A stretch of DNA of 64,000 nucleotides from an uncultured Gammaproteobacteria bacterium (GTDB taxonomy: Bacteria > Patescibacteriota > Microgenomatia > UBA8517): contig CAYSJW010000033.1 in NCBI GenBank assembly GCA_964431555.1, forward strand, positions 9,389 to 73,388, given 5' to 3'. The first letter of the stretch is position 1, and each line of letters opens with the position of its first letter. Positions 44,768 through 63,648 of this stretch are shown here, one piece after another. The translations under genes and the position numbers were made by a program. The notes beneath the pieces were generated by a model, which searched no databases, was not told where the DNA came from, and saw only the letters and a list, made by a program, of their open reading frames with translations.

Positions 44768-44920
44768 ATCTATACCCTAGTATTTATAAATTTTTATATT
44801 CTTCTTGAATCTTGATATAATATAACGAACAATTAATATTAAAATAATTCTTAAATTAGATTTGTAAAAAAAGTATTTTCAATTGTAAAATATTATTTTG
44901 TTAGGTTATTATCTTTAAAA

Positions 44921-45005: not shown

Positions 45006-45054
45006 CATCAAATTAATTTTTTAGATATTAATCCTCTTTTTAAAATATTACTTT

Positions 45055-45127
45055 CGGGGATTGGCTCAGTTGGTAGAGCGCACGGTTTGGGACCGTGAGG
45101 TCGCCAGTTCGAATCTGGCATCCCCGA
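45055..45127 (+). tRNA. tRNA-Pro (anticodon TGG)
   Basis: Acceptor CGGGGAT/ATCCCCG. Anticodon loop TTTGGGA. Confidence 0.8.
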
Positions 45128-45199
45128 CATTATAATAAGTAAAAAAATATAAAAAAATATTGTACGTTTAAAAAATCTATATTATTATATTTAAATTTC

Positions 45200-45270
45200 G
45201 CGGGATTAGTTGAGCGGTTCAACACCTCCCTTCCAAGGAGGAAAGACGGGTTCGACTCCCGTATCCCGCT
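45200..45270 (+). tRNA. tRNA-Gly (anticodon TCC)
   Basis: Acceptor GCGGGAT/ATCCCGC. Anticodon stem CCTCC/GGAGG with loop CTTCCAA. Discriminator U. Confidence 0.75.
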
Positions 45271-45286
45271 CAAATTAAATAAAATG

Positions 45287-46990: not shown

Positions 46991-47049
46991 TTTAAATTTA
47001 AATACTACAATTTACACTTAAGTTGTCAACAATAAGAAAATATAAGATG

Positions 47050-47121
47050 TGCGCCTAGGGGGAGTCGAACCCTCATCATCGGTTCCGAAGACCGCTGCTC
47101 TATCCATTGAGCTATAGGCGC
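47050..47121 (-). tRNA. tRNA-Arg (anticodon TCG)
   Basis: Acceptor GCGCCTA/TAGGCGC. Anticodon loop CTTCGGA. Confidence 0.7.
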
Positions 47122-47165
47122 AATATTCTAAGAAATTATACATTTTTTAATATATAATTTCAGCT

Positions 47166-48278: not shown

Positions 48279-48289
48279 AATAAAAATTG

Positions 48290-48362
48290 TGCCCCTGGGA
48301 GGAATCGAACCTCCAGTCTTTCCCTTAGAAGGGGACTGCTTTATCCGTTAAGCTACAAGGGC
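48290..48362 (-). tRNA. tRNA-Arg (anticodon TCT)
   Basis: Acceptor GCCCTTG/CAGGGGC. Anticodon loop CTTCTAA. Confidence 0.7.
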
Positions 48363-48470
48363 TTAAATTATTTCTGAAAAATAAACTAAATTTAAAAGTC
48401 AAAAACAATTGGATTATTTATAATTATTTATTGATATTCTAACAGATTATGATTTAATAATAAATATAAC

Positions 48471-49565
48471 ATGACAAATTTTTTAAGTAATGAAAATACA
48501 AAATCTTCATCTTCTAATGGTTACGAATTACCAAAAAAAATAGCAATACTTTACAGTTTTGTTAAAAGAGAATATTTTCCTACAGAAGCTCAATATATCA
48601 CCGAAAAAGACGCAGAAAAAGATGCAATACTTGTTGCTGAATATGTAAAAAAATTTGGAATAGAAGTAAAGTTATTTCCAGCTAATTCCAATATTGCATT
48701 GTATCTAAGAAAATATAAACCTGATATGGTTATAAATTTGGTTGACTCTATTAAGGGTATCGAAAGTTTACAAAGCGCGATACCCGGAATTTTGGAAATA
48801 TTAGACATTCCATATACAGGCGGAGACATACTAGGTTTGTCACTCACTACTAATAAATTTTTAGTTAAAAAACTTCAAGAACAAAATGGCGTTCCTGTTC
48901 CTCACTATCAGATGTTTAATACCTATAGCGATTATCTTATACCAAGTCTTAGATTTCCACTAATTTCCAAACTAAATGAAATTCATGGAGCCGTAGAAAT
49001 CACCAAAGATGCTGTTTCTGAAAACGAAAAACATTTAAGAGATAGAATTAAATATCTAATCCAAACTTATAAACAACCCGTAATTGTTGAAGAATTCATT
49101 GTAGGCAGAGAAATCACTGCAATTCTCTTAGAAGGATTAAACAAAAAAGTATACTTGGCAGAAAAAGTTTTTCATAAAGAAAACGAAAAATATGTTTTCG
49201 CTACCTTTGAAGACCAATGGATTAACAAAAATCCTGTCTTTGAGTATGTAAAATATGATGATCCAATACTTAGAGAGTATGTGAAAAAAGCTTTTGATGT
49301 CACTAAAATGTATGACTACGCAAAATTTGATATAAGATTAGATCAATCAGGAAGATATTTTTTTATAGACAGTAATTGTAACCCTGCCTTTGGCCCCAAA
49401 GAAGCAGATGTTGCAATTTCAAATATTTTATCACTATATGGAATTTCCTTTTCCGAAATATTAAAACGTTTATTACTTAACACAATGCGTGATGCTCAAG
49501 GCAAAGAAAGATTACCAGTTCCTGACACATTTCAAAATCAATTACAAGGTAATAACTTTTTATAA
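48471..49565 (+). CDS. ATP-grasp domain protein (D-Ala-D-Ala ligase-like fold)
   Basis: N-terminal Rossmann-like pre-ATP-grasp region (KIAILYS.). Central ATP-grasp region. The Ddl SxEhevS signature is not evident. Confidence 0.45.
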   Translation: MTNFLSNENTKSSSSNGYELPKKIAILYSFVKREYFPTEAQYITEKDAEKDAILVAEYVKKFGIEVKLFPANSNIALYLRKYKPDMVINLVDSIKGIESLQSAIPGILEILDIPYTGGDILGLSLTTNKFLVKKLQEQNGVPVPHYQMFNTYSDYLIPSLRFPLISKLNEIHGAVEITKDAVSENEKHLRDRIKYLIQTYKQPVIVEEFIVGREITAILLEGLNKKVYLAEKVFHKENEKYVFATFEDQWINKNPVFEYVKYDDPILREYVKKAFDVTKMYDYAKFDIRLDQSGRYFFIDSNCNPAFGPKEADVAISNILSLYGISFSEILKRLLLNTMRDAQGKERLPVPDTFQNQLQGNNFL

Positions 49566-50044
49566 ATTTTAATCTTTTCTTTAAGACTTATCTTTGCAAA
49601 ACGAGGAGAAGGAGATGGTAAAGAAAAAATTGATATTTTAGGATATTTCAGAATTAATCCTTTAAAATTCTTCCTAAACAATTTTTCAACATATAAACTG
49701 GTAAAAAATATTTTTTCTATCGGATTATTCCTTATAATATTTTTGATTTCCACTATATTGTATTTTATCACCTTAAGATTCTCATCAGAATTATTATTCT
49801 TTATTCTTTCACACTCTGAAATAATATCAGCTATCGCAATTTTTAAATCAATAAGAAATCTTTTCTTATCTTTTATATTATTTAATTTTTTATCATAAAC
49901 TTTTTCCATTATCTTCCAGAATTGATTTATCCTTCCACCATAATACCAATCACCCCTTAAACCTTCTTTGCCAGGGAAACTTCCTAATATCAAAAATTTG
50001 GATTTTTGAGGTACAAAACTTCCGAAGGGATGTTTTTCTATCAT
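49538..50044 (-). CDS. uracil-DNA glycosylase superfamily protein (family 6/HDG-like?)
   Basis: FLILGSFPG motif A-like region early in the protein. 168 aa. Confidence 0.45.
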   Translation of the reverse strand: MIEKHPFGSFVPQKSKFLILGSFPGKEGLRGDWYYGGRINQFWKIMEKVYDKKLNNIKDKKRFLIDLKIAIADIISECERIKNNNSDENLKVIKYNIVEIKNIIRNNPIEKIFFTSLYVEKLFRKNFKGLILKYPKISIFSLPSPSPRFAKISLKEKIKIYKKLLPCN

Positions 50045-50079
50045 TAAAACACCGTAAAATAAAATTACCTATAATTTTG

Positions 50080-50151
50080 AGCGGTGGACCGGATTTGAAC
50101 CGGCGACCTTCTCCTTGGCAAGGAGACATTCTACCACTGAACTACCACCGC
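50080..50151 (-). tRNA. tRNA-Gly (anticodon GCC)
   Basis: Acceptor GCGGTGG/CCACCGC. Anticodon loop TTGCCAA. Confidence 0.8.
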
Positions 50152-50159
50152 TTATTATG

Positions 50160-50232
50160 TGCCGAGAGTGTGAGTCGAACACACATCTGACGCTCTTCAG
50201 GCGCCCGCCGTGACCACCTTGGCTATCTCGGC
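50160..50232 (-). tRNA. tRNA-Phe (anticodon GAA)
   Basis: Acceptor GCCGAGA/TCTCGGC. Anticodon stem GGCGC/GCGTC with loop CTGAAGA. Confidence 0.8.
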
Positions 50233-50303
50233 AAACTCTATATATTTTATCAGATCTTACAAGCAAAAATTATATATAAAAACCTAATATATACTCAAAA
50301 TTG

Positions 50304-50377
50304 TGGGCTTGTCAGGATTCGAACCTGAGACCTTACGGATGTAAGCCGTACGCTCTAACCAACTGAGCTACAAGCCC
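50304..50377 (-). tRNA. tRNA-Val (anticodon TAC)
   Basis: Acceptor GGGCTTG/CAAGCCC. Anticodon loop CTTACAT. Confidence 0.8.
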
Positions 50378-50498
50378 TTAAATCTTTTTTCACAATTTAA
50401 GGAAAATTAACTTATTTAAAACTTTAAATATTATACAAAAAACTAATAAAAATTATAAGATAAGATAAAACAGGATAGGATAAAATCCTTTTAGAATA

Positions 50499-53060
50499 TC
50501 AACTTTCATATTTCATAAAAAATCTTTTTTTAACCAACTCCGTAACATAAAAATAAGCAAAAAGATCAAAAATTATTAAAAACCAAATTATTTTCGGGAT
50601 TTTTGCAAAACTAAAAATAGAAATTTCAAATATTGCCAAAAATACAACGGATAGTATAGAAATTACACTTAACCAAAAAAGCCACTTACTTGGCTTACTC
50701 TTATAAAAGGGGAGTTTTGTCCTTATAGCAAAGGTAACCAACATCTCGGAAATTGATGATTGAACAAACCAGGCTGTTTGAAAAACACTAGGACTTACCT
50801 TAAACAAAAAAGCCATGGGGATTATCAAACATAAATCAAAAACAGAACTTATAAAACCAAAGTAAATCATAAAATTTTTTATGTAATTTAAATTCCATTT
50901 ATTTGGTTTCTGAGTAAATCCTTCATCAACATTGTCAGTAGCTATCGCAAATAAGGGTATATCACTAATAAGATTATTCAACAAAATTTGTTTTGGAAGA
51001 AGAGGAATAAAATTCAAAAACAGCGAAGATAATGCGACGGTGAACATATTTCCAAAATTCGCTGAAATAGTATTTAAAATATATTTCATAATATTACCAA
51101 AAGTTTTTCTGCCAGCTTCAATTCCATCGACTAAAACTTTTAAATCTTTTTGCAAAAGAATTATATCCGAAGCTTCTTTGGCCACATCCGTACCAGTATC
51201 AACGGTAATTCCAACATCAGATTCTTTTAATGCAGGTGCATCATTGACACCATCTCCTAAAAAACCCACAATATGTCCCTCATAATTCAAAACTTTAACG
51301 ATTTCATATTTTTGAATTGGCGATACTCTTGCAAATACAATACAACTTTTCGCATAATCCACAAATTCATCACGAGTGCAATTTTTTAATTCATCACCTG
51401 TGATAACTTCATTATCAGAAAACTCTATTCCAGATTCCTTTGCAATACTTTTTGTAACAGTCAAACTATCTCCACTTAAAATCTTTAAAGATATACCCAT
51501 ATCCAAAAACTTCTCAATGGCTACTTTAGTCGTAGTTTTAATCGGATCTTTAAAAAGAATAATTCCCAGATAAATCAATTCTTTTTCGTCACTTGAATTT
51601 GATTTTTTTATATCACAATATCTTAAAGCCAAAGATATAGCTCTTAATCCTCTTTTTTCATATTTTTTAACCTCGTTTAGAATAAATTTTTTAATTTTCT
51701 CCGATAATTTTAATTTTTTGTTATCCTTATAATAAAAGCTTGAAATACTAATTATTGATTCTGGTGAACCTTTAACTATTAAAAAAGTCTCGTCACCACT
51801 TTTTACCAAAACACTCATCCTTCTTCTTTCATAATCAAATTCATTTTCATCAATAACCTTATACTTACTCATCTCATTTTTATAACTTCTGGCAAAATAG
51901 CTCTCCCAGATAGCTCTATCTGTTGGATTTAATTTTTGGCCAATTTTACTTTCAGAAGCTCCTTCAGTACAAAGCATAGAATAAATAATTAATTTTTTAT
52001 CTCTTATTCCATCATTATTTTTATAATCAAAAAGAGTAAAATTTCCTTCCGTCAAAGTACCTGTTTTATCCATACACAGCGTATTTATATTTCCAAAATC
52101 CTCAACAGCTGCCAATTTCTTAACAACAACCTTTTTTTTTGCCATTTTAATAGCTCCTTGAGACAGAGTTACTGTGATTATTGCTGGAAGCATTTCAGGA
52201 GCAATTCCTACAGCCAAAGCTATGGCAAACATAAAAGAAGAAAATATACCTTTATTTAAAATAGCGTTAGATAAAAAAATAAAAACTGTCATCAAAATTA
52301 TCAAACGAAAAAGAAACCTACTAAATTTAGATATTTGTATCTGAAAATCTGTTTCCGGTTCGTTTTCTTTAACAACCTTTACAATTTTTCCAAATTGAGT
52401 TCTTAAACCAGTTTCAACAACCACCCCAAGAGCATTTCCTTCGACAACAGATGTTCCCATGAAGACCATATTCTTCATATCTGAAATCAAAGAATCTGGG
52501 GAAATTATTACGTCTGCTTCCTTGATTACTGGAAAAGATTCACCAGTCAATATCGCCTCATTAAGTGATAAAGCATCAGTTTTTATAAGCCTTATATCCG
52601 CCGGTACTATGTCTCCTATGTGTAGTGAAACTATGTCACCTGGAACAATATATTCATGTTCTATCCTAGATAATCTACCGCTTCTAAAAACATTAGAATA
52701 TCGCTTTACATATTTTTTAAGTTTTACTAGAGTTCTTTCAGCTTTATATTCTTGATAAAATCCGAATAAAGCAGAAAGAACAACAAGTAAAATAATTACT
52801 ATCGAATCTATTTTCTCACCTAATATGAGAGAAACAACTGAAGCAAATATTAATACAAGAGTAAGCCAATTTTTAAATTGAGAAATAAGTACTTTAAAAA
52901 AAGAAAGTTTTTTTTCTTCGCCAAAATTATTTAAACCATAGATCTTCAAACGCTTATAGGCTTCATCATCTGACAATCCACTTCTTTTTGTATCAAATTC
53001 TCTTAATACAGAATTAATATCTTTACTACACCATTTATTATCAAAACCTTTTTCATTCAT
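50499..53060 (-). CDS. cation-transporting P-type ATPase (P2/P3-like, Ca2+/Mg2+ type)
   Basis: LTGESFPV, DKTGTLTEGN (phosphorylation site), GDGVNDAPALK hinge. 853 aa with about 10 TM helices. Confidence 0.9.
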   Translation of the reverse strand: MNEKGFDNKWCSKDINSVLREFDTKRSGLSDDEAYKRLKIYGLNNFGEEKKLSFFKVLISQFKNWLTLVLIFASVVSLILGEKIDSIVIILLVVLSALFGFYQEYKAERTLVKLKKYVKRYSNVFRSGRLSRIEHEYIVPGDIVSLHIGDIVPADIRLIKTDALSLNEAILTGESFPVIKEADVIISPDSLISDMKNMVFMGTSVVEGNALGVVVETGLRTQFGKIVKVVKENEPETDFQIQISKFSRFLFRLIILMTVFIFLSNAILNKGIFSSFMFAIALAVGIAPEMLPAIITVTLSQGAIKMAKKKVVVKKLAAVEDFGNINTLCMDKTGTLTEGNFTLFDYKNNDGIRDKKLIIYSMLCTEGASESKIGQKLNPTDRAIWESYFARSYKNEMSKYKVIDENEFDYERRRMSVLVKSGDETFLIVKGSPESIISISSFYYKDNKKLKLSEKIKKFILNEVKKYEKRGLRAISLALRYCDIKKSNSSDEKELIYLGIILFKDPIKTTTKVAIEKFLDMGISLKILSGDSLTVTKSIAKESGIEFSDNEVITGDELKNCTRDEFVDYAKSCIVFARVSPIQKYEIVKVLNYEGHIVGFLGDGVNDAPALKESDVGITVDTGTDVAKEASDIILLQKDLKVLVDGIEAGRKTFGNIMKYILNTISANFGNMFTVALSSLFLNFIPLLPKQILLNNLISDIPLFAIATDNVDEGFTQKPNKWNLNYIKNFMIYFGFISSVFDLCLIIPMAFLFKVSPSVFQTAWFVQSSISEMLVTFAIRTKLPFYKSKPSKWLFWLSVISILSVVFLAIFEISIFSFAKIPKIIWFLIIFDLFAYFYVTELVKKRFFMKYES

Positions 53061-53127
53061 GCTCTTATCTAATAATACAACATGAAGAGTTATTAGAAAA
53101 TGAAGTTATTAATTTTTTAATTTTTTG

Positions 53128-53209
53128 TGCGCGGGACAGGACTTGAACCTGCACGCCTTACGGCACAGCCTCCTCAAGACTGCGTGTATACCAATTTCAC
53201 CACCCGCGC
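53128..53209 (-). tRNA. tRNA-Leu (anticodon GAG), class II
   Basis: Acceptor GCGCGGG/CCCGCGC. Anticodon stem CAGTC/GGCTG with loop TTGAGGA. Variable arm GCC-GTAA-GGC. Confidence 0.75.
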
Positions 53210-53247
53210 ATACAGCAAACTATATATAACCAAAAAACTCTACAGTG

Positions 53248-53333
53248 TGCCGAAGAGAGGATTTGAACCTCCACGCTCATATTCGAGCACACGCTCCTGA
53301 AGCGTGCCTGTCTGCCAATTCCAGCACTTCGGC
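53248..53333 (-). tRNA. tRNA-Leu (anticodon CAG), class II
   Basis: Acceptor GCCGAAG/CTTCGGC. Anticodon stem CACGC/GCGTG with loop TTCAGGA. Long variable arm. Confidence 0.8.
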
Positions 53334-53488
53334 TTACTAAATCTCTTAAAACACATAAAATAAAAATACTTAAATATTATTCAGTTTTATATCTCTAAAA
53401 ATTAAACCTAACCTCAAATTGCTTATGAGAATCATTCAATTATATCATTTTAATGCAGCCACATAAATCCTAAAATACAATAAATCAT

Positions 53489-54745
53489 ATGAAAAAATAC
53501 ATTTTTTTAATTACAACTAATATCTTAGTATTTTTAAGCTTTTTTAATCCTTTTTGCGTCTCATCTAAAGTAAACCCTCTTTCCAATCCTAACAATTACT
53601 TCGGAATCCACATTTTGAACGAAAATGACTTAGATGATGCAGCAAAACTCGTAAATTCTAGTGGAGGAGACTGGGGTTATGTAACATTAGTAATCCGTAA
53701 AGATGAACTAAATAAAGATAGGTGGCAAAAAGTATTTGACAAAATGCGCCGTTTACATTTAATTCCAATCGTTAGAATTGCAACAAAACAAATTGAAAAT
53801 TACTGGGAAAAACCAAATCTTAACGAAATTGACGCATGGGTTTCATTTCTCGATTCTCTAAATTGGGTAATTAAAAACCGTTATTTGATAATCGGAAACG
53901 AGCCTAATCATGCAAAAGAATGGGGTAATGAAGTAAATCCTGAAGAATATGCGGACTATTTAATAACATTTTCAGAAAAATTAAAAAATAAATCCGAAAA
54001 CTTTTTTATATTACCAGCAGGACTTGATGCTTCAGCTCAAAGCATAAAAGGATCTATGAGCGAAGATGAATATTTGAAAAAAATGCTATCTCATAAACCT
54101 TCTCTCTTTAACTATATCGACGGTTGGAATTCTCACTCCTACCCAAATCCAGAATTTTCTGGATCAGAATTGGAAAAGGGTAGGGGAACAATTACTACCT
54201 ATGACTGGGAACTTGAATTTTTAAAATCTTTAGGTGTGAATAAAGAATTACCAGTATTTATAACAGAAACAGGATGGGCGCATAATCGTTATGACAAAGT
54301 TTTAGCATATAAAACCCCTGACGAAGTTTCACATAGTTTAAAATTCGCTTTCGAAAATGTCTGGAATGATAAAAGAATCGTTGCTGTTACTCCTTTTGTT
54401 TTAAATTACAAATACCCACCCTTTGACATCTTTTCCTGGCGTAAAAAAGATGGAGGTTTTTATAACTTTTACTATAATATACAAAAAATTCCAAAAATTG
54501 CAGGAAAACCTATTCAGGAAATAAAAGTTAAGCTTATATCTATAATATTTCCTCCAATTATTAAAAAGCATAATAAATTTTATGGTCTTTCTTTTATAAA
54601 AAATGAAGGTCAATCAATTTGGAAATGGGGCGAATTCATCAATGCTTCTAATTGGGGACCTAATATTCAGTTTATTCCCCTTCTATTTTTTTTGAACGGT
54701 GAACCAGGACAGCGAGCACTATCAATCATAAAAGTAGGAAGTTAG
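53489..54745 (+). CDS. secreted clan GH-A glycoside hydrolase (GH5/GH39-like)
   Basis: Signal peptide. IIGNEPNH (acid/base Glu in an NEP context) and FITETGWAHN (nucleophile Glu) about 120 aa apart, as in (beta/alpha)8 retaining glycosidases. Confidence 0.55.
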   Translation: MKKYIFLITTNILVFLSFFNPFCVSSKVNPLSNPNNYFGIHILNENDLDDAAKLVNSSGGDWGYVTLVIRKDELNKDRWQKVFDKMRRLHLIPIVRIATKQIENYWEKPNLNEIDAWVSFLDSLNWVIKNRYLIIGNEPNHAKEWGNEVNPEEYADYLITFSEKLKNKSENFFILPAGLDASAQSIKGSMSEDEYLKKMLSHKPSLFNYIDGWNSHSYPNPEFSGSELEKGRGTITTYDWELEFLKSLGVNKELPVFITETGWAHNRYDKVLAYKTPDEVSHSLKFAFENVWNDKRIVAVTPFVLNYKYPPFDIFSWRKKDGGFYNFYYNIQKIPKIAGKPIQEIKVKLISIIFPPIIKKHNKFYGLSFIKNEGQSIWKWGEFINASNWGPNIQFIPLLFFLNGEPGQRALSIIKVGS

Positions 54746-55110
54746 ATAATTTTTGATTTTATATTTATCTGTCTAAAAATGTATTTATAAGCATCTAATA
54801 CCCAAGTATTGGCACAAGAAACAATTAAAAAAAGTGCATCCATCAGTTGATTTTTATAAAATGCTTCATTAAAAAGTTTATTTATAATTTTTTATCTTTA
54901 AATAAAACAAAAAGAAAACTTTTAAAATTTCGGTTGATGATTATTTTTTTCTGCTTTAAGAATTCTTTTGATTAAATAATTTAAAACCTCTCTCTGCTTA
55001 AATTTTCATACACAATGTCTTTTTTTCAACGACTTCAAAAAATTTACAAATATTAAAAAATAAATCAATTTACAAAATTTAATTTATCCAAAAAACATTT
55101 CAATATCTTT

Positions 55111-56502
55111 TTAATAAACGAAACTTATTATTTTTATCATAATATATTTCATATATTTTAAAATATATTTTAATAGAAAAAACAAACCTGATAACTGAAA
55201 TAAGGTAAAAAAGAAAGATAGGTGAACATAATAACGCATCCAGTCTAAAATAAGATAATAATTCATAAATAAAAGTATTATTAAAAAGGAAGTAATAATT
55301 ATAATAGCCATTACATATTTCTGTAAAACAAGTTTTATTGTGTAAATCATTCCCAATAAAAATAAAAGAAAAAGATAAACTCCATAATTTTTTATTAAAT
55401 TCAATCGATTAAATATCTTTATACCATTGAAGATTTTCGTGTATCCAGAAAAATAGAAATTCTCAAATATTTTCTTTATACTTTTTCCACGTTCAATCGA
55501 AGCTTCAGGATTATATATTCTCTCATAGATAGCTGTACTGTTTCTATGTTCAAACATATATTTAATATTTTTAAAAGGATTTGAATAAGTAAAAGGATTC
55601 AAACCTACAAAAATTACTAATCCTAAAAACAAAGAAAAAATATTCCAAAGAATATTTGAAACTTTTTTTTCCTTAAAAAGGATAAGGATCAAAGTATTTA
55701 CAAATGTAAATATAATAAACATAAAAGAACCGTTTAATTTGGTTGACATACACAGTGAAGAAAATAAAGAGAATAAAATCAAATATAAAATATTTCTATT
55801 CTTTTCGAAATAAAGAACCATAAAATAAAGTGACGCGTTAAAAGTTAAAAGAAAAAGAGCTTCTGAATATGCTTTTAACCCTGTTTCTATAATTAAAGAA
55901 TTGTACCCGTAAAGTATTGAAAAAATTATTGAAAAAATAAATCCTTTGAATTTTAATGCTAAAAAGTAGGCAATAATAACCGCTCCGGATAACAAAAATA
56001 CGTTAAGAATTCTAGCGTATAAAATTAAATTAACAGTTTTTCTACTTTCAATACCATATTTTGCAACCCAATCCTCAAGATAACCAATCATTGCACCATC
56101 ATATTTAACAAAATTATAAATACTCTTATATTCAAGAGGTGCACTATCATAATCTTCTTGAATAAAATAAAATCCATTCTTAATCAAAAACTGATTATAG
56201 TCGATAGGTTTTGAATCTTTCGCTTTATTGAGAAGATATATAGGATAAAGCCAAGCACCAAAAGCATATTCAGCAAGTTTAGGTTGATCAAATGATTTAT
56301 AATTTTTCCAAACTTCATTACCAAAATCTCCATTTATAAAATAAACAAAAAAATTACTTCTATCTACCCAATATACTTCATCCCAATATGAAACCGGTAG
56401 TAACTTATTAAAATAACCGTAGCTATAAACAAGTACTAAAAAAAATAGATAGGGAAAAATTAAAGTTTTAAACAAAGATTTACTAAAAACATATTTTATC
56501 AT
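55111..56502 (-). CDS. polytopic membrane protein, possible GT-C/GT39-like glycosyltransferase
   Basis: 463 aa with 11 or more TM helices. An extracytoplasmic loop early in the protein contains acidic residues (YWDEVYWVDR), as in GT-C enzymes. Confidence 0.35.
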   Translation of the reverse strand: MIKYVFSKSLFKTLIFPYLFFLVLVYSYGYFNKLLPVSYWDEVYWVDRSNFFVYFINGDFGNEVWKNYKSFDQPKLAEYAFGAWLYPIYLLNKAKDSKPIDYNQFLIKNGFYFIQEDYDSAPLEYKSIYNFVKYDGAMIGYLEDWVAKYGIESRKTVNLILYARILNVFLLSGAVIIAYFLALKFKGFIFSIIFSILYGYNSLIIETGLKAYSEALFLLTFNASLYFMVLYFEKNRNILYLILFSLFSSLCMSTKLNGSFMFIIFTFVNTLILILFKEKKVSNILWNIFSLFLGLVIFVGLNPFTYSNPFKNIKYMFEHRNSTAIYERIYNPEASIERGKSIKKIFENFYFSGYTKIFNGIKIFNRLNLIKNYGVYLFLLFLLGMIYTIKLVLQKYVMAIIIITSFLIILLFMNYYLILDWMRYYVHLSFFFTLFQLSGLFFLLKYILKYMKYIMIKIISFVY

Positions 56503-56704
56503 ATAAACATCTTAACTCAAAAATAATAAAAGTAGTTATTGTAAATCTTAGCTGATATTATCTATCTTCGGTAATATAAATGTCTTAAATTTTTATCTGT
56601 ATCTTTAATTTTTAAATTTGATCTTATTAAATCTAATTTTAATAGCTTTTTAAGATTAATAAAGTCATATGAAGTACTTCTTGCTACCTTGAAAATTCTT
56701 GATG

Positions 56705-56776
56705 TGAGCCCAGAGGGATTCGAACCCCCAACCAACTCCTTAAGAGGGAGCTGCTCTACCATTGAGCTATGGGCCC
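56705..56776 (-). tRNA. tRNA-Lys (anticodon CTT)
   Basis: Acceptor GGGCCCA/TGGGCTC. Anticodon loop CTCTTAA. Confidence 0.8.
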
Positions 56777-56913
56777 ATAAATTTATGAGATTTAATTTTA
56801 ATAATTTAAACAATTTTATTTAATTAAAAACAAACAATAATTAATTTTATCAAATCATTAAAACAAATTCACACCCACAACTTGACTTTATAATCTTAAA
56901 TATGTAATTCTGA

Positions 56914-57579
56914 TTGATAATAGCTAAAAGTACAAATATACATACGTTATCTACCGTGGAAAATAAAAACTTAGAAAAGGAGTCAATATCAAGAAAATTG
57001 TTACTAATGGTTATTTTTTTTGTAATAACCCCATTGGCACTCTTTTCCAGTGTAATATCTCTCATAGCTTTAACAGAAAGACATATTTCTAATCTTGATC
57101 AAAACAATAACCTTTTAGAAAAACCAAAACCGGGCTTAAAAGTATTTGCTGCACTTCCACCCAACACATCTTCAATAAATGAAGAAATTATCTCCGCTGA
57201 CGCTCGCCCAGAAATAATCAGAAAATATCTAAAAGAAAGAAATTCTCCTTTAGAAAAATACGCTGAACTACTTGTTCAAACTGCAGACAAATATCAACTA
57301 GATTTTAGATTATTAACTGCAATTGCACAAAAAGAATCAGGACTTTGTCGTATCATTCCTCCAGAAAGCCACAATTGCTGGGGCTGGGGAATACACAGCA
57401 AAGGAACCTTAAGTTTTGACTCCTATGAAGAAGCTATAGAAGCTGTTTCCAAAGGACTAAAAGAAAACTACATAGACAAAGGATATATAACAATAGAACA
57501 AATAATGAAAAAATACGCCCATCCAGAATCAACCACTTGGGCAGAGGGTGTTAATAGGTACATGAAACAAATGGAATAA
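56914..57579 (+). CDS. hypothetical membrane-anchored exported protein (possible lysozyme-like/glucosaminidase-like C-domain)
   Basis: TM helix, then an ...AIAQKESG... segment weakly reminiscent of muramidase-type ESG motifs. Weak call. Confidence 0.3.
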   Translation: MIIAKSTNIHTLSTVENKNLEKESISRKLLLMVIFFVITPLALFSSVISLIALTERHISNLDQNNNLLEKPKPGLKVFAALPPNTSSINEEIISADARPEIIRKYLKERNSPLEKYAELLVQTADKYQLDFRLLTAIAQKESGLCRIIPPESHNCWGWGIHSKGTLSFDSYEEAIEAVSKGLKENYIDKGYITIEQIMKKYAHPESTTWAEGVNRYMKQME

Positions 57580-57828
57580 TCTCTAAAATCTTCTATTTCT
57601 TGACAAAACTAAACTTTTATTTGATAAACCATGTTAAAATTATTTTAATTTAATGAGTCTTAATTTACGTCACAGTTTAAAAACATACTTTATTAAGTTG
57701 CTTTAATTCTTATAAAAAAATATAGCTTTATTATCATCGATTCATACAAATGTGTATTCATTAAAAAAGAAAATCAAAGAAGATAAAATTAAAAATTTAT
57801 ATATACTTCAATCTATCAAACATTAATT

Positions 57829-58584
57829 ATGTCTGCATATTACGATTCATACGATTATCCTTCATATTGGAAGGGTAGAGAATATGAGCATGAAGCTGAA
57901 ATTATGGCTATAAAAAGTTTTATTAATAAAATTCCAAAAATAAATACCATTGTTGAAGTAGGAGCGGGCTATGGAAGACTTGTCCCTTCTTATTATTTTA
58001 GAGCAAAAAAAATCATTCTTTCCGATCCTTCTGCTAGACTTCTCAAAATAGCAAAAAGCAGGCTTAGAAATAAGGGAATAAATTTTATCCAGTCAAGTGT
58101 TGAAAATCTTCATCCTAAAATTAGGCGTAATACAGCGGATTTGGTGATATTTGTTAGAGTAATTCATCATATTCAAAATATAGATTCAGCCCTTAATATT
58201 ATTTCCAAAATAACCAAAAAAGGTGGTTATCTTATACTTGAATTCGCTAATAAAAGACATCTTAAAGCAACCTTATTTGAATTTCTAAAAGGCAATTTTA
58301 CATTTCCCTTGGATATTTTTCCCAAAGAGATAAAAAGTAAAAATAAAAAGACAAAAACAATACCATTTTTAAATTATCATCCTGATATGATTAGAGAAAA
58401 ATTATCTCAACATGGATATAATATTGTTGAACAAAGGTCAGTTTCAAACATTAGAAGTAAATTTATGAAAAAGATTTTCTCATTAGATAATCTATTAATT
58501 CTAGAAAAACTTTTACAAAAACCATTTTCGTACATTCATTTTGGTCCTTCAATCTTTGTACTTGCAAAAAAATGTAGCATATAA
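57829..58584 (+). CDS. class I SAM-dependent methyltransferase
   Basis: Motif I VEVGAGYGRL. Motif II/III spacing consistent with a Rossmann-fold methyltransferase. Confidence 0.8.
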   Translation: MSAYYDSYDYPSYWKGREYEHEAEIMAIKSFINKIPKINTIVEVGAGYGRLVPSYYFRAKKIILSDPSARLLKIAKSRLRNKGINFIQSSVENLHPKIRRNTADLVIFVRVIHHIQNIDSALNIISKITKKGGYLILEFANKRHLKATLFEFLKGNFTFPLDIFPKEIKSKNKKTKTIPFLNYHPDMIREKLSQHGYNIVEQRSVSNIRSKFMKKIFSLDNLLILEKLLQKPFSYIHFGPSIFVLAKKCSI

Positions 58585-58661
58585 TAAATATACTATAACA
58601 ATGTATATAATATTTTTAATAAGAACCTATAATATTATTATTCAGTAATTATTAATAATAT

Positions 58662-58690
58662 TTGACAATCTTATAGTAATGTGTTATAGT
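58662..58690 (+). promoter_or_regulatory. consensus sigma70-type promoter TTGACA-17 nt-TATAGT
   Basis: -35 TTGACA (58662-58667), exact 17-nt spacer, -10 TATAGT (58685-58690). Predicted transcription start near 58697. Confidence 0.6.
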
Positions 58691-58696
58691 ACACTT

Positions 58697-58782
58697 ACGT
58701 TCTGAGGCAAACCAAGTATAACTTGGGTGAGCGCGTCAGAATTTTTCATGACAGGTACTTTAGGGTACCTGTCTTTTTTTTG
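58697..58782 (+). ncRNA. candidate small structured RNA (about 85 nt) ending in an intrinsic terminator
   Basis: Between promoter and terminator, nested helices TTCTGA...TCAGAA and CCAAGT-ATA-ACTTGG. Then the terminator hairpin and U-tract. No coding potential. Confidence 0.5.
58750..58782 (+). terminator. rho-independent terminator GACAGGTAC-TTTAGG-GTACCTGTC followed by T8
   Basis: Perfect 9-bp stem with a 6-nt loop and a run of 8 T. Confidence 0.75.
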
Positions 58783-58793
58783 TAAGATAAATT

Positions 58794-59027
58794 ATGATAA
58801 TAAAATTATTTTCAATAATAATACTTACTTTAATTAAACTTAACTTTCCTGATTTGGCTCCTGCCAACAGTTTTTATGTATCTTCTTTAGCAAAATTAAA
58901 TTTATACCTACAAGATAATGATAGTAATGATGAAATTACAAAAATTTATACATCCCTAAGCAAAAATTGGGCAAATGATGTAAAATATCTTATTAATAAG
59001 ATAGATAGATCAGAAATATTAATATAA
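58794..59027 (+). CDS. hypothetical small protein (77 aa)
   Basis: ORF starts 11 nt after the terminator T-tract with no SD. Doubtful. Confidence 0.2.
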   Translation: MIIKLFSIIILTLIKLNFPDLAPANSFYVSSLAKLNLYLQDNDSNDEITKIYTSLSKNWANDVKYLINKIDRSEILI

Positions 59028-59037
59028 TATTGATAGA

Positions 59038-59123
59038 GCCGAGGTGGCGGAATTGGCAGACGCGCAGGATTTAGGATCCTGTGAGGGTTAATCCTTATGG
59101 AGGTTCGAGTCCTCTCCTCGGCA
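59038..59123 (+). tRNA. tRNA-Leu (anticodon TAG), class II
   Basis: Acceptor GCCGAGG/CCTCGGC. Anticodon stem CAGGA/TCCTG with loop TTTAGGA. Confidence 0.8.
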
Positions 59124-60835: not shown

Positions 60836-62104
60836 TTAAAGCAAAGAGTAATTAGATCTTTCAAGCACAGAGGAAGAAAAAACAAAATCTTCCAACTCTT
60901 TAACCCCTCCAAAAGCAATCCTGTCTGGAACTTCATTATTTTTCAAAAAAAGCATTCGGGCTGGTTTTAGGACAAAACTTCCCCAGCGATTATTAATCTT
61001 ATCAATTGCCTCAAAAAGCTTTTCTTTTTTTAGACAATCCTGAAAAAGTTCCAACTGTAAATTACTTTTTTTCTTCAAACCAAAAACCGAAACTGAAAGA
61101 TCACGCACTGGCTTACTATAAGGAGACATAGCCAAAATTCGCAAAGCATTCTTATAAATTTCTCTAGAATCAAAAAAGCTTCTCAGAAAACTAACTCCCT
61201 TATGCCAAAAGGTTCCATCTTTATATCCTATGGCTACATGTATTCCTTTTGCCGAATAACCAGCCTTTCTTAATCTAAAAGCCGATTTTTCAGTAAGTTT
61301 GCAAAGAATAGGGGAGAGTTCTTGAAGTGAAACCAAAGGCTTAGGAAGAGCGTAGGAATTCCCAAAACTTTTTCTGCCAAACTCAATATTATCTATCTCA
61401 TATCCGCGAAGGCGCAGATACCAAAAATATCCGTTGATCGATTCAAACGCTGCTTTCAACTTCCACAAAGGTGAATGATAAAAATCCAAAACACTGAAAA
61501 TGCCCACAGAATTCAAACGCAGAGAATTCTGAAACTTTATATAAGGAAGGTCTGTAAGGCTAAGTTTTGAGTAAATACCACAAAAATTATCTTTATTTAT
61601 CTCCTCAAGGCCATCGGGTTTGTGCAAATTTGAAGCCAACTTGGCAAGAAATCTATTCGGGGCAACACCTATTGAAACAGTCAACCAATCTCCAATCTCC
61701 CTTTTAATCCTTAACTTTATTTCTTTCCCTAACTTAAACATCTTATTTTCAATCCCCGATACCTTGCTTTTAAAACTCCAATAGTCTTCCAAGTCTAAAA
61801 CAAATTCGTCTATGGATTTTGGTACTAATTTGGGAGTATACTCCGACAAAAGCCTGCGGAGTTTGAGGTGAACATTTCTATATTTCCAAGGATCCGGAGG
61901 CAAAACTACCAAGTTAGGGTAGATTGCTTTTCCTTCTTCAACTCTCATTCCCACCTTAATTCCAAGTCTTTTAGCTTCAACAGAAGGAGCTATAATACAT
62001 CCCCTTGGAGTGGTGTAAGCAGCCACTGCAATTGGTTTTCCCCTCAAATACGGATTTGCCTGCTGCTCAATCGAAGCAAAGCAGGAGTTTAAATCAATGT
62101 GCAT
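60836..62104 (-). CDS. dinB: Y-family DNA polymerase (DinB/UmuC-like, Pol IV)
   Basis: MHIDLNSCFASIEQQANPYLRGKPIAVA is the canonical Y-family N-terminus. The ORF track extends to a TTG at 62179, but ATG at 62104 (MHIDL) or 62143 (MRFL) is the more plausible start. Confidence 0.85.
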   Translation of the reverse strand: MHIDLNSCFASIEQQANPYLRGKPIAVAAYTTPRGCIIAPSVEAKRLGIKVGMRVEEGKAIYPNLVVLPPDPWKYRNVHLKLRRLLSEYTPKLVPKSIDEFVLDLEDYWSFKSKVSGIENKMFKLGKEIKLRIKREIGDWLTVSIGVAPNRFLAKLASNLHKPDGLEEINKDNFCGIYSKLSLTDLPYIKFQNSLRLNSVGIFSVLDFYHSPLWKLKAAFESINGYFWYLRLRGYEIDNIEFGRKSFGNSYALPKPLVSLQELSPILCKLTEKSAFRLRKAGYSAKGIHVAIGYKDGTFWHKGVSFLRSFFDSREIYKNALRILAMSPYSKPVRDLSVSVFGLKKKSNLQLELFQDCLKKEKLFEAIDKINNRWGSFVLKPARMLFLKNNEVPDRIAFGGVKELEDFVFSSSVLERSNYSLL

Positions 62105-62237
62105 TACACTTGGTTTTTTAGAATTAAAGGGAAGAAATCTCATAGTTAATAGATAATTTAAAAAAACTCTAAATACCAAATACTAATACCTAAATACCCA
62201 CTTCCGGCTTCTAGATTTTACTCTCTAATTTCTAAAT

Positions 62238-62440
62238 CACTTACAACTCACAACTAATTTCTCATTTTCTACCACTCACTTCTTACCTCCCATCGCCCAC
62301 ATCTCACTTCTAACTTCCCACTTCTCACTTCTTACATCTTACTTCTTACGTCCTACATCCTACTTCCAATCTCCAACAACCAACAACTCACAACCCACCA
62401 CTCATTTCTCACTACTCGCTACTTACAATCATCAACTTAT
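62238..62440. repeat. array of 29 tandem degenerate heptamers (consensus about WWCYYAC), G-depleted on the plus strand
   Basis: Perfect 7-nt register over 203 nt. C at position 3 in 27/29 units, A at position 6 in 27/29. Only 3 G in 203 nt. Confidence 0.85.
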
Positions 62441-62465
62441 TTATACTCTAAATGTTTTATCCACT

Positions 62466-62485
62466 TCGATGATTCGAATCATCGA
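62466..62485. repeat. perfect 20-bp palindrome TCGATGATTCGAATCATCGA in the AT-rich spacer between the two heptamer arrays
   Basis: Self-complementarity checked base by base. Confidence 0.85.
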
Positions 62486-62683
62486 TACAGTTTAAAATTT
62501 GTCAACTATTAAGAATAATTTGATAACTGGTAATTGGTAATAATTACAAAATAATAACTATAAAATTATCTACTCTTTTTAATAAAATATTCCTACATCA
62601 TTTATTAAAATCATTCATTAACCATTAACCAAATTTAATACATAAAGGCTAATTCATAATTTCAATCTCTTATCGTATTCCAA

Positions 62684-62803
62684 TCTTACTTCACCCAGTA
62701 CCCAAAATCATCCCTTACAACTAACAACTAATAACTTACAACTCACAACCCACCCGCTCATCACTCACTACTCACTCCCCACTAATTTCCTCCAACCTCC
62801 AGT
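62684..62803. repeat. second heptamer array (about 16 units, one 1-nt register slip), same orientation and consensus
   Basis: Units such as aactaac aactaat aacttac aactcac aacccac ... cactcac tactcac tccccac. G-poor. Confidence 0.75.
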
Positions 62804-63023
62804 GCAAATTATCTGTATTCAAAACCAAACGTAAAAATAAAGTTTTACTAACAACCGAAAACACATGAAAGAGAGTAAGACCCTCTCGATAGGTGTGATG
62901 AAATCCAACCTTAACTACCGGGTAAAGGCGATTATTCCAAACAACCCATTTGGGAAAAACCCGGCACGTTTTTTGATCAAAAACCAAAACCACTGAAACC
63001 GGTTCATTAACCTTTGTATTCAT
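62772..63023 (-). CDS. hypothetical 83-aa ORF whose C-terminus runs into the second heptamer array
   Basis: Non-repetitive N-terminal 70 aa, but no SD. Could be spurious. Confidence 0.25.
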   Translation of the reverse strand: MNTKVNEPVSVVLVFDQKTCRVFPKWVVWNNRLYPVVKVGFHHTYREGLTLFHVFSVVSKTLFLRLVLNTDNLHWRLEEISGE

Positions 63024-63105
63024 ATCAGATAAAATTAAAAATCCGAATATAATACGAAATATAATTTATTTATAAAACCGAATAAAATACAAATCAAGAG
63101 GCAAT

Positions 63106-63648
63106 TTAAAGTAGATTCTTAAGTTCAAACCTTTTTAAAACAATATATTTAGCTCCAAAGGGGGAAAGCAAAGATTCAAAAAGACAAAATGTATCAACCT
63201 TGATTTTCCAAAAAACCCTATCCTCAATCCTTTTTATAACAAATGACCTAAAATCGCTACCCTTAAAACGCGCTAAGGTAAGATGAACCTTAAAATCCCT
63301 ATTTTCTGGTTTTATACTAATACTTTCTTCAATACTTTTCTTAAGCTTGGTAATTGTTTCGCTAGTTTCACCCTTAGCCCAAATAAGTCTTGGTCTTTTA
63401 TAATCTGGACCATAGCATACTTCATTAAATAAAATTTCAAATGGATTAATTAAAGCTCGGATTTGATCAATCCCTGCAATCACTTTTTCTAAATCTTCCT
63501 CATACCAGGGAGGTACCAAGGTTATATGAAGATTTTCTTTTTCTATCCAACGAACATTCAATTTATTCTGATACTTATTTTTCCATTCCTCAATTTCATT
63601 TATTAAATTAGATTCCGCCTTGATACCTATAAAAACTCTCTTTTTCAT
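63106..63648 (-). CDS. 2H phosphoesterase / 2'-5' RNA ligase (LigT/ThpR) family
   Basis: Two H-x-T-x motifs (NLHITLVP and KVHLTLARF) spaced as in the LigT family. 180 aa. Confidence 0.75.
   Translation of the reverse strand: MKKRVFIGIKAESNLINEIEEWKNKYQNKLNVRWIEKENLHITLVPPWYEEDLEKVIAGIDQIRALINPFEILFNEVCYGPDYKRPRLIWAKGETSETITKLKKSIEESISIKPENRDFKVHLTLARFKGSDFRSFVIKRIEDRVFWKIKVDTFCLFESLLSPFGAKYIVLKRFELKNLL

Follow-up and report, generated by a model that had tools for sequence, protein, structure and literature searches.

A degenerate heptanucleotide repeat tract between a small ORF86-family gene and dinB in a Woesebacteria-like bacterium

Results

Genes and features of the locus

We present here the analysis of a 64-kb stretch of DNA (64,000 nucleotides, hereafter the window) from an ultra-small, Woesebacteria-like bacterium of the candidate phyla radiation, in which two arrays of seven-nucleotide units lie inside an operon whose downstream gene is dinB (Table 1). 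The arrays had originally been placed between the ligT-like gene and dinB. The position of dinB, downstream and on the same strand, is correct, but a conserved gene for an 83-aa protein, belonging to the ORF86 family, had been overlooked and intervenes. Since the right end of array 2 codes for this protein, the arrays lie between the 83-aa gene and dinB. In 72 of 87 related loci an ORF86 gene directly precedes dinB, and most often the two genes abut (the modal spacing, 27 loci); here they are 628 nt apart. The nearest relative in the databases shows 79% protein identity. Searches with the 83-aa protein gave no match in Pfam or NCBIfam and no sequence match in the PDB. AlphaFold predicts for it, with confidence (pLDDT 95.8), an all-beta meander free of helices, for which no match to nucleic-acid-binding folds was found, and on these grounds the neighbour was rejected as a heptad-binding protein.

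Table 1. Genes, repeats and predicted elements of the ORF86–dinB region (positions in the window)
Feature	Position	Strand	Remarks
dinB, Y-family DNA polymerase	60836..62143	−	IMS and IMS_C domains; downstream gene of the operon
Third heptad run, AAATACC x4	62171..62198	−	reads GGTATTT on the operon strand; shortly before the dinB ATG
Array 1	62238..62440	−	29 degenerate heptads; operon strand is the minus strand
Inter-array spacer	62441..62683		243 nt, AT-rich
Perfect 20-bp palindrome, TCGATGATTC/GAATCATCGA	62466..62485		within the AT-rich spacer
Sigma-70-like match, TTGACA-16-GATGAT	62478..62505	−	10/12; consensus match only
Predicted long-range RNA hairpin	62486..62740	−	pairs array 2 (3' part) with a G-poor arm of the spacer (ATTACCA)
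Array 2 core	62712..62781	−	about 10 heptads; +1 register shift (1 nt) at 62754
83-aa gene, ORF86 family	62772..63023	−	conserved; upstream of dinB
ligT-like 2',5' RNA ligase/phosphoesterase gene	63106..63648	−	upstream neighbour

Periodicity and composition of array 1

The heptads of array 1 follow each other head-to-tail in a single register, each exactly 7 nt long, and the unit reads xxCxxAC on the plus strand and GTRRGWW on the operon strand. All counts given for it in the original prediction were reproduced: 29 units, C at position 3 and A at position 6 in 27 of them each, and only three G residues among 203 nt (A55 C80 G3 T65). The only near-invariant positions are 3, 6 and 7. On the plus strand C reaches 39%, compared with 14% in the window background, and G 1.5%; the operon strand is thus G-rich and almost C-free. 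The proposed autocorrelation analysis gave a clear period, with an identity of 0.65 at lag 7 (z=9.9 vs shuffles) and further peaks at lags 14, 21 and 28 (z 7–8.5). The skeleton (C..AC..)x7 was matched four times at the tract and never in 100 shuffles, and the three top period-7 windows of the whole 64 kb all fall within the ORF86–dinB intergenic region.

The units are degenerate, 25 of the 29 being distinct from one another, and the tract is too variable for active phase variation, which the original prediction had also excluded. T and C are the commonest of the non-consensus bases, among which C exceeds G by 20:3 (p=5e-4). Such strand-biased variant bases are not predicted by neutral decay in a genome of 28% GC, which hints at selection or at a strand-specific mutation bias. 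The units are WWCTYAC-like, many of them with a CAC-containing core (CTCAC). On the operon strand their positions 2–4 hold a mixture of TAA, TGA, TAG, TGG and TTG, amounting to a stop codon in 18 of the 29 units, and the 628-nt intergenic stretch as a whole carries stop codons in all three frames. H-DNA and G-quadruplex structures were set aside because the units are broken by T at fixed positions and contain no G-runs.

Array 2, the spacer and a third heptad run

The stop codon of the 83-aa gene marks the start of array 2, which has the same orientation as array 1 and is periodic as well (lag-7 z=5.1). Its existence and orientation had been recognized correctly, but not its size: we count about 10–13 units rather than about 16 over 62684–62803, as 62684–62711 is scarcely periodic and 62782–62803 encodes the conserved C-terminus HWRLEEIS of the 83-aa protein. 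The two arrays have a 36-nt segment in common with 89% identity (62738–62773 and 62383–62417), and periods of 14 and 21 nt were detected by TRF.

The separator is AT-rich and carries a perfect 20-bp palindrome, both as described before, with a length of 243 nt (previously about 245). It contains heptad runs of its own, GGTTAAT x2 and ATTACCA x2 / TTGGTAA x3. The palindrome overlaps the second hexamer of the sigma-70-like site, which, judged by its match to the consensus, could be an internal promoter for dinB. No intrinsic terminator was found on the operon strand within the spacer. The palindrome occurs only once in the window and was not found in viral contigs, and it was therefore rejected as a dispersed element. 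The AAATACC x4 run stops about 28 nt short of the dinB ATG; its unit recurs in the spacers of related loci L156, L138 and L135.

Assembly and coding checks

Contigs from ENA and JGI are 100% identical to the window over the whole tract, although they may sample one population, and a Logan contig, likewise 100% identical, ends inside the spacer at about 62627 and so covers array 2 only. Wherever the independent assemblies reach they are identical, and an assembly artefact was rejected on this ground. The contigs spanning the tract, possibly representing a single population, do not vary in its length. All six frames were checked and no ORF with coding potential was found on either strand: the minus strand is full of stops, and the single open frame of the plus strand has neither a start codon nor gene-like content. 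The tract is non-coding, in line with the earlier view. The earlier exclusion of CRISPR, REP, iteron and CsrB-like elements likewise stands; Rfam gave nothing at the gathering threshold over the 64 kb and no match, of CsrB/RsmZ type or any other, at E<=10 over 62000–63200.

RNA folding

The operon-strand arrays, being C-less, are predicted to form only weak G-U and A-U pairs, and structure prediction found no complementary arm for array 1. The long-range hairpin listed in Table 1 is modestly supported (z=-2.9, 1/200 shuffles) and is present also in the centroid structure. RNA of the plus strand, antisense to the operon, is predicted to be entirely unpaired across both arrays in MFE and centroid structures alike, and in composition and lack of structure it suits a rut site, for which a C-rich, G-poor and unpaired RNA of some 80 nt or more is required.

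The ORF86–dinB junction in relatives

The suggested homology search for arrays conserved upstream of dinB did not find any: none of the 87 related loci has a homologue of the tract, and when the 628-nt spacer was compared by blastn with 745 kb of related loci, the only match was a spurious one of 27 nt. Lack of conservation in homologous genomes was among the outcomes that the original prediction had named as speaking against a functional element. Since the sequence is absent from every relative, the tract is, on this comparison, a lineage-specific expansion. The homology of the relatives ends after ...GAAATTAGT, within the last codons of the 83-aa gene. From there the window continues with AGTGAGT AGTGAGT and then GATGAGCGGG, and the relatives with AGTGATGG. 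A TGA arising in the first repeat units is a premature stop that truncates the C-terminus of the 83-aa protein.

Relatives have gained heptad inserts at this junction independently. A period-7 excess of at least 0.25 was found in 8 of 17 ORF86–dinB intergenic regions, compared with 13 of 271 other intergenic regions of the same loci (Fisher p=3e-6), the 8 high-scoring regions being non-independent and representing about 6–7 sequence families. These inserts are built of other heptads, often as G-less/C-less hairpins, and several are predicted to form significant hairpins (z -3.2 to -6.3 vs shuffles). In L171, L156, L008, L161 and L179 the spacer consists of a G-less heptad arm and a C-less, G-rich arm, forming a long hairpin, and a U-rich tail. 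Expanded spacers turn over fast, with only three small homology groups among about 25 distinct ones; the homologous pairs L138/L156 and L144/L161 are too alike to be informative about covariation in the hairpins.

Discussion

Relation to known heptanucleotide repeats

The original prediction set the tract apart from all described repeat classes. This view has to be corrected, as intergenic heptanucleotide tandem repeats are already published (PMC4679880; PMC4692102; PMC12721329; bioRxiv 10.1101/2022.06.06.494920) and the tract belongs to this class as a degenerate, decayed member, array 1 lacking the identical or near-identical units by which simple repeats are strictly defined. Among the long simple sequence repeats of prokaryotes, heptamers are the most abundant, with slippage proposed as the cause (PMC4679880; PMC4692102); those of 7 nt are ascribed to Mrazek et al. 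2007, as summarised in the same two papers. In genomes closely related to the repeat-bearing ones, the intergenic regions are typically shorter and free of repeats (PMC4679880; PMC4692102). Similarly to these repeats and to the tandem heptamers of the cyanobacteria Calothrix and Nostoc, the tract is composed of head-to-tail 7-nt units, is far longer than expected by chance, is intergenic and has a strand-asymmetric base content; as with long simple sequence repeats, close relatives lack it in the orthologous intergenic region. Even the unit types are identical to those of other phyla: arrays of TTCTCAC, TTCTTAC, AACTCAC, AACTAAC or AACCAAC occur in more than 120 genome stretches among the matches listed, from Cyanobacteria, Bacteroidota, Acidobacteriota, Planctomycetota and others, and 60 of 67 heptamer-array stretches, again among the matches listed, are intergenic. 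Two control skeletons of the same composition were matched in viral contigs just like the target, each at least up to the number of matches listed. The scans demonstrate that heptamer arrays are common, not that this skeleton stands out, so a cross-phylum 'xxCxxAC' family was rejected. The known arrays are near-perfect, made of one or two units and often numerous in a genome, whereas the units here are mostly distinct and the tract is the only one in 64 kb, in a candidate-phyla-radiation genome. We found no prior report in the literature of a heptamer tract in such a genome.

In Haemophilus influenzae the transcribed (ATCTTTC)n repeats of hmw1A/hmw2A set expression by their length through a 5'-UTR hairpin, which is processed by RNase III, expression being inversely related to repeat number (PMC12721329). 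The tract shares with hmw a G-less 7-nt unit in an untranslated region upstream of a gene, transcription being demonstrated for hmw, and the hmw design of G-less arm, C-less arm, hairpin and U-rich tail is mirrored in the five relatives named above. In contrast to hmw, the operon strand of the window has the G-rich arm type only, and the pairing partner of array 2 is modestly supported; as array 1 is without a complementary arm, the experimentally proven hmw mechanism is not directly transferable. Length switching, too, is unlikely with units this degenerate.

Intergenic TAACTGA repeats are known from Beggiatoaceae, Cyanobacteria and Bacteroidetes (PMC4679880), and in Nostoc modest regulatory effects are described for the heptamer repeats that precede recF and recO (bioRxiv 10.1101/2022.06.06.494920). 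In both sets, as here, heptamers stand shortly upstream of start codons, including those of DNA-repair genes, and the AAATACC x4 run close to dinB fits this pattern. Those sets, however, have 2–8 copies (few reach 43) of one exact heptamer at many loci, and the tract about 40 varied units at one locus.

Origin and proposed effect of the tract

Our preferred reading, to which we assign a probability of about 0.55, is that the tract is a decayed intergenic heptanucleotide repeat expansion, an intercistronic spacer or leader that arose by slippage and would uncouple and tune dinB. The starting point would be a two-gene operon of the ORF86-family gene and dinB, abutting or overlapping as in most relatives. 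The tract seems to have been started in place, by slippage at the 3' end of the small gene, with AGTGATG giving AGTGAGT AGTGAGT, as the sequences at the junction suggest. Further units would have been added as the 7-nt unit slipped at replication, and duplications of blocks of 14, 21 and 36 nt, along with point changes, may have led to some 40 non-identical units and to two paralogous arrays around the AT-rich core. The tract would be transcribed with the operon as an untranslated stretch, G-rich, almost C-free and closed by stops in three frames, and this stretch would uncouple the translation of dinB from that of the gene before it. With the coupling broken, the output of the mutagenic polymerase would be set, and probably lowered, by the tract. 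The AT-rich core may contribute a putative internal promoter and a palindromic operator. The bias of C over G among variant bases is left unexplained by slippage expansion.

The most serious alternative, although we consider it unlikely, accepts the same slippage and denies the function: the tract would be neutral filler that dinB, having its own start codon, can tolerate, and would be repetitive simply because new intergenic DNA arises only by local duplication. The degeneracy of the units, the rapid turnover of spacers in relatives, the conservation of the tract sequence in none of them and the attribution of heptamer abundance to polymerase slippage in the literature are all consistent with this. 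Three observations argue for more than filler: the variant bases avoid G and not C, heptad-rich inserts are over-represented at this particular junction, and the hairpins of several relatives are far more stable than their shuffles.

A bolder reading would see in heptad cassettes, recruited repeatedly and independently at this junction, a fast-evolving, RNA-level rheostat on the error-prone polymerase in Woesebacteria, in which gain and loss of repeats tunes mutability. It would assign hmw-like hairpins to most lineages and a long, G-rich, C-free leader to the present genome, and we regard it as speculative, with the odds well against it.

It is improbable that the heptads are iterated protein-binding sites, forming a multivalent platform on DNA or on the G-rich RNA that regulates dinB. 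The strong fixation of C3 (2.2 bits) and C7 (1.6 bits), with the rest of the unit freely variable, would suit such sites, and a heptamer-binding factor has been postulated for the TAACTGA and Nostoc sets (MacGregor 2015, PMC4679880; Nostoc preprint, bioRxiv 10.1101/2022.06.06.494920). The relatives carry quite different heptads at the junction, so there is no conserved site, and neither a candidate binder nearby nor an Rfam match was found. Candidate models for a heptad binder are the omega repressor on DNA (WATCACW), and TRAP, HutP, CsrA, S1 and cold-shock proteins on RNA. Omega and HutP sites have the 7-nt spacing seen here. Omega operators of inc18 plasmids are contiguous direct 7-bp WATCACW units in arrays of 7–10; the tract resembles them in its contiguous direct units and frequent CAC-containing core, but departs from the WATCACW consensus, has the ATCAC core in only one or two units, lies in a chromosomal, intra-operon context and has no ribbon-helix-helix gene nearby. 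TRAP recognizes (G/U)AG triplets 2–3 nt apart and HutP those 4 nt apart, in 3+3 copies. Although the HutP spacing fits, neither GAG nor UAG is fixed, UAG occurring at the fixed position in few units only, the number of units is 29 rather than 6 or 11, and no TRAP- or HutP-type gene is adjacent to the tract.

Still less probable is a strand-specific insulator against Rho. RNA that is C-rich, G-poor and unstructured is a good Rho substrate, and C-free RNA is a bad one. The nearly C-less operon RNA would thus escape Rho, so that the long untranslated gap would cause no polarity, and the antisense RNA, with its 39% C, 1.5% G and predicted lack of pairing over both arrays, would be an ideal loading site at which antisense transcription is halted. 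However, the inserts of relatives have both arm types on one strand and the asymmetry is therefore not general; moreover, we know of no 7-nt periodicity in Rho sites, and to our knowledge Cyanobacteria, which are rich in such repeats, have no Rho.

A foreign insertion or integration scar, e.g. a small non-autonomous mobile element flanked by arrays, as also once suggested, hardly comes into consideration: the tract is some 500 nt longer than in relatives and, between two direct arrays, does have an AT-rich core in which a promoter-like site and a palindrome lie, but no further copy occurs in the 64-kb window or among 745 kb of related DNA, viral contigs lack the palindrome, no gene for a transposase or integrase adjoins the tract, and at the junction the homology ends inside the small gene's last codons, the first units resembling an in-place duplication of local sequence.

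Conclusions

Taken alone, the tract is one more heptamer repeat, which extends this class to an ultra-small bacterium of the candidate phyla. Its seeding is legible in the sequence, where the 3' end of a small gene seems to have been duplicated in 7-nt steps and its protein truncated. In related lineages the same operon junction has been refilled repeatedly with unrelated, heptad-built sequences, many of them hmw-hairpin-like. If these inserts control dinB, simple-repeat evolution would be linked to the control of a mutagenic polymerase, and the junction, with its abutting genes, hairpin spacers and direct array, would offer a tractable comparative system for the roles of bacterial heptamers.

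Structure of the tract

In this AT-rich window (28% G+C) the gap between a small conserved gene of the ORF86 family and dinB, which encodes an error-prone Y-family DNA polymerase, contains two blocks of heptamer repeats, array 1 and array 2 (see table). Array 1 agrees with the original prediction: C at position 3 and A at position 6 occur in 27/29 units each, C or T occupies position 7 in all 29, and its 203 nt contain 80 C (39%, against 14% in the background) and only 3 G. The claimed period of seven was borne out by autocorrelation, with lag-7 identity of 0.65 (z=9.9 versus shuffles), further peaks at lags 14, 21 and 28 and all remaining lags at or below expectation. The seven-unit skeleton matched array 1 four times and none of 100 dinucleotide-preserving shuffles, while the top three period-7 windows of the entire 64 kb all fell within the ORF86-dinB intergenic region. 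Array 2 (lag-7 z=5.1) is real and oriented as described, but of the approximately 16 units assigned to 62684-62803 only a core of about ten remained, 62684-62711 being scarcely periodic and 62782-62803 protein-coding. The intervening spacer, expected at about 245 nt, and its palindrome were recovered. Since the arrays have in common one 36-nt segment (89% identity) and two segments of about 20 nt, we consider them paralogous. An assembly artefact is ruled out by ENA and JGI contigs, 100% identical over the whole tract, and by a Logan contig, 100% identical for array 2 only, as it stops inside the spacer.

The tract is non-coding, as predicted: the operon (minus) strand has stops in every frame, with TAA, TAG or TGA at positions 2-4 in 18/29 units, and the single open frame of the plus strand is without a start codon.

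Features of the window and of related Woesebacteria-type loci (L-numbers)
Feature	Sequence	Position	Strand	Description
ligT-like gene	window	63648..63106	minus	
Region 5' of ORF86	window	63030-63105	minus	promoter-like
83-aa ORF (ORF86 family)	window	63023..62772	minus	
Array 2, clean core	window	62712-62781		~10 units; one-base register shift at 62754
Spacer between arrays	window			243 nt, AT-rich; perfect 20-bp palindrome at 62466-62485
Array 1	window	62238-62440	read on plus	29 units, single register
dinB	window	62143..60836	minus	
13 tRNA genes	window	43411-59123	both	
ORF86-dinB spacer	L171			(AAATCCT)n...(AGGATTT)n
ORF86-dinB spacer	L161, L144			(CCTAATT)n...(AATTAGR)n
ORF86-dinB spacer	L156, L138			(AAATACC)...(GGTATTT)
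ORF86-dinB spacer	L008			(ATCGGTT)n...(AAATCCGA)n
ORF86-dinB spacer	L147, L179, L134			also G-less arm/C-less arm
Mini-protein gene	L005; L130; L132	4244-4352; 2398-2502; 1263-1367		
Mini-protein gene	L152, L170, L172			in spacer
Heptad run 5' of ORF86	L136; L004; L183	9613-9999; 3725-4000; 2014-2319		L136 run same in L134, L135, L137
Heptad hairpin elsewhere	L172	2759-2846		z=-2.2
Heptad hairpin elsewhere	L004	5773-5885		between convergent dinB and DUF192 gene; z=-3.0
Four-locus conserved block	L164; L204; L145; L152	5263-5717; 979-1356; 4802-5106; 4739-5105		

Operon context

Gene order on the minus strand is ligT-like gene, 83-aa ORF, repeat tract, dinB; thus dinB does lie downstream on the same strand, as stated originally, but the 83-aa ORF preceding the tract had been missed. 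This ORF has 182 homologues of about 86 aa, 57-79% identical and derived only from Woesebacteria, Microgenomates or Patescibacteria, with 20 residues invariant in the family; Pfam, NCBIfam and PDB sequences gave no match. As judged from sequence comparison, it is a genuine gene. Among 87 related loci fetched for comparison, dinB stands directly 3' of the ORF86-family gene in 72, and most of the other 15 lie on contigs that stop short of where dinB would be expected. The two genes most commonly abut or overlap (27 loci), other loci having spacers of 60-491 nt. Gene order points to a conserved two-gene operon holding the tract. The longest spacer, 628 nt, is that of the window, and blastn found nothing homologous to it among the relatives, contrary to the conservation considered originally; the tract is therefore regarded as a lineage-specific expansion inside the operon.

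The promoter-like region is conserved in the equivalent 160 nt 5' of ORF86 in L005, L007, L008, L130 and L132, and reads TTGAyTT..ATTTTATTCGGnTTTATAAA, then ATATTTCGTATTATwTTCGG. TTCGG(A)TTT motifs recur 5' of ORF86 and also appear in spacers of some relatives (L008, L145), in both orientations; the region bearing them may be a candidate operator for a regulator of the dinB operon. In several relatives the gap encodes a conserved hydrophobic mini-protein of 33-34 aa (e.g. MMKEINFVFELVKIVGFVVLPFSLCLILSFVALS), absent from the window, whose gene overlaps both neighbours and is hence counted, in some lineages, as an additional, third gene of the operon. Loci L158 and L159 from one sample (Ga0265297) differ by about 467 nt in this gap, and their ORF86 copies score equal identity (64.2%) to the window's protein; the L159 gap has an additional non-repetitive segment, probably encoding a small reverse-strand gene. 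Elsewhere in the window the tRNA genes, spread over about 16 kb, are unusually dense for a small genome.

Class of repeat

The tract is not CRISPR, REP or CsrB-like, as originally concluded, and no Rfam family matched even at E<=10. The claim that it resembles no described class did not survive, heptamer repeats having been published (PMC4679880, PMC4692102, PMC12721329), and the tract belongs to that class. Among the long simple sequence repeats of prokaryotes those with heptanucleotide units are the most abundant, and polymerase slippage is their proposed cause, according to Mrazek 2007 as cited in PMC4679880 and PMC4692102. Both Calothrix and Nostoc contain tandem heptamers (PMC4692102), in Nostoc also upstream of recF and recO (bioRxiv 10.1101/2022.06.06.494920), and another example is the (ATCTTTC)n tract of hmw in H. 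influenzae (PMC12721329). TAACTGA repeats lie just 5' of start codons in Beggiatoaceae, Cyanobacteria and Bacteroidetes, and intergenic regions in close relatives of their bearers are shorter and repeat-free (PMC4679880), a feature shared with the window.

With each prokaryotic species represented by a single genome, a scan for (C..AC..)x7 yielded more than 120 matching stretches (a lower bound), from Cyanobacteria, Bacteroidota, Acidobacteriota, Planctomycetota, Verrucomicrobiota, Chloroflexota and others. The listed matches are mostly near-perfect heptamer arrays, and their units include those mixed in the window (TTCTCAC, TTCTTAC, AACTCAC, AACTAAC, AACCAAC, TTCCCAC). At loci below 55% G+C, 60/67 arrays among the listed matches are intergenic; listed arrays that face the start of a gene have their G-rich strand as the sense strand in 25 cases versus 13, an orientation also seen in the window. 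On viral contigs this skeleton and two control skeletons of the same composition all matched abundantly (lower bounds only), so xxCxxAC cannot be called special, and the scans show only that heptamer arrays are common. The real difference from published arrays is degeneracy, 25/29 units of array 1 being distinct, and the tract is an unusually degenerate example of an already described class. We found no report in the literature of heptamer arrays in candidate-phyla bacteria.

Origin of the tract

Nucleotide homology to the relatives extends as far as ...CACTGGAGGTTGGAGGAAATTAGT (residue 81) and is lost beyond it. Relatives continue with GATGG..., giving D-G-x-x-x-stop, and the window with GGGGAGTGA GTAGTGA GTGATGAGCGGG; the local heptamer AGTGATG/AGTGAGT is repeated in the window, followed by sequence resembling the relatives' AGTGATGG. 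A premature TGA, coming from the first added unit, shortens the window protein to ...EEISGE. Higher-order periods of 14 and 21 nt were detected with TRF, and neither the window nor 745 kb of related DNA contained a second copy of the tract. These periods, the 36-nt duplication and the missing second copy argue for 7-nt slippage and block duplication in place and not for foreign insertion; absence of the 20-bp palindrome from viral contigs was counted likewise. By its sequence signature, the tract was born in place by slippage.

Heptad-built spacers of relatives

Many relatives have expanded ORF86-dinB spacers made of unrelated units of about 7 nt, usually with a G-less arm first and a C-less arm after it. 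For several of them folding predicts long hairpins of much higher stability than in shuffles (L171 z=-6.3, L156 -3.8, L008 -3.6, L161 -3.4, L179 -3.2), and in many relatives a U-rich tail comes next, immediately before the dinB AUG. Among intergenic regions of >=60 nt from 70 non-redundant loci, period-7 excess of >=0.25 was found in 8/17 ORF86-dinB spacers versus 13/271 other regions (Fisher p=3e-6, somewhat optimistic because the 8 cases are about 6-7 independent sequence families; length-matched Mann-Whitney p=0.005). These spacers resemble hmw1A, where the regulated gene is likewise preceded by a long hairpin with one G-less heptamer arm and one G-rich arm; the hmw1A hairpin is cleaved by RNase III, and expression was shown experimentally to fall with more repeats (PMC12721329).

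The window departs from this design, both big arrays belonging, as read on the operon strand, to the C-less type; folding prediction found no complementary arm for array 1. It has in common with relatives' spacers four GGTATTT just 5' of the dinB start, and TTTAGAAATTAGAG adjoining array 1. Plus-strand RNA is predicted to be wholly unpaired over both arrays, and operon-strand RNA to fold through weak G-U and A-U pairs only (z=-2.4). For array 2 the folding model suggests possible pairing between its 3' part and an ATTACCA arm, poor in G, that lies in the spacer (z=-2.9, 1/200 shuffles as good).

In some relatives heptad runs stand upstream of ORF86 and not in the ORF86-dinB gap, for example (AATTACA)3(AATGACA)2, then inverted ATTTGGC/ATTTAGG units reaching the start codon. 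Heptad hairpins of AAATCCN / NGGATTT type occur at other Woesebacteria intergenic sites, among them gaps between convergent genes, in which a terminator role is conceivable; such elements may constitute a dispersed family in Woesebacteria. Four intergenic regions from different Woesebacteria, which came up solely through a weak nearby period-7 signal, have in common a conserved block (…CCTTTGTGTTGGGTTTTGAATTG…CCACTAAAAATAC…GATTTAATA…GGTTTTCATAC) that might represent either a non-coding RNA or a small gene on the reverse strand that has escaped annotation.

Discussion

The original interpretation is partly supported overall. Our preferred account, to which as a whole we assign a probability of about 0.55, is that a slippage-born untranslated stretch uncouples the two genes and sets DinB output. 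Transcribed with the operon, the tract would form a long untranslated, G-rich, nearly C-free, stop-dense stretch, which would abolish the translational coupling implied by the relatives' abutting genes; loss of coupling would set, and probably lower, the amount of DinB made in proportion to the upstream protein. A TTGACA-16-GATGAT site overlapping the palindrome, a consensus match only, could supply dinB with its own regulated promoter.

The strongest competitor, though an unlikely one, is that the tract is neutral filler. Among non-consensus bases T occurs 50 times, C 20, A 8 and G 3 (C:G p=5e-4), and this strand asymmetry at variable positions is the main unexplained fact, which simple neutral decay at 28% G+C does not predict. 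We consider it improbable that, as was suggested originally, the units act as a multivalent array bound by protein, either as DNA or as RNA. Unstructured RNA that is rich in C and poor in G is a textbook Rho loading site; the antisense RNA fits this description and the sense RNA is the opposite, and a Rho-related strand-specific insulator would be a still more doubtful reading. Foreign insertion, including the integration scar proposed originally, is hardly credible beside the in-place duplication at the junction and the lack of a second copy in the window and the related DNA compared.

Alongside the uncoupling account of the window's tract, the most interesting by-product of the analysis is the recurrence of heptad-built spacers at the ORF86-dinB junction.
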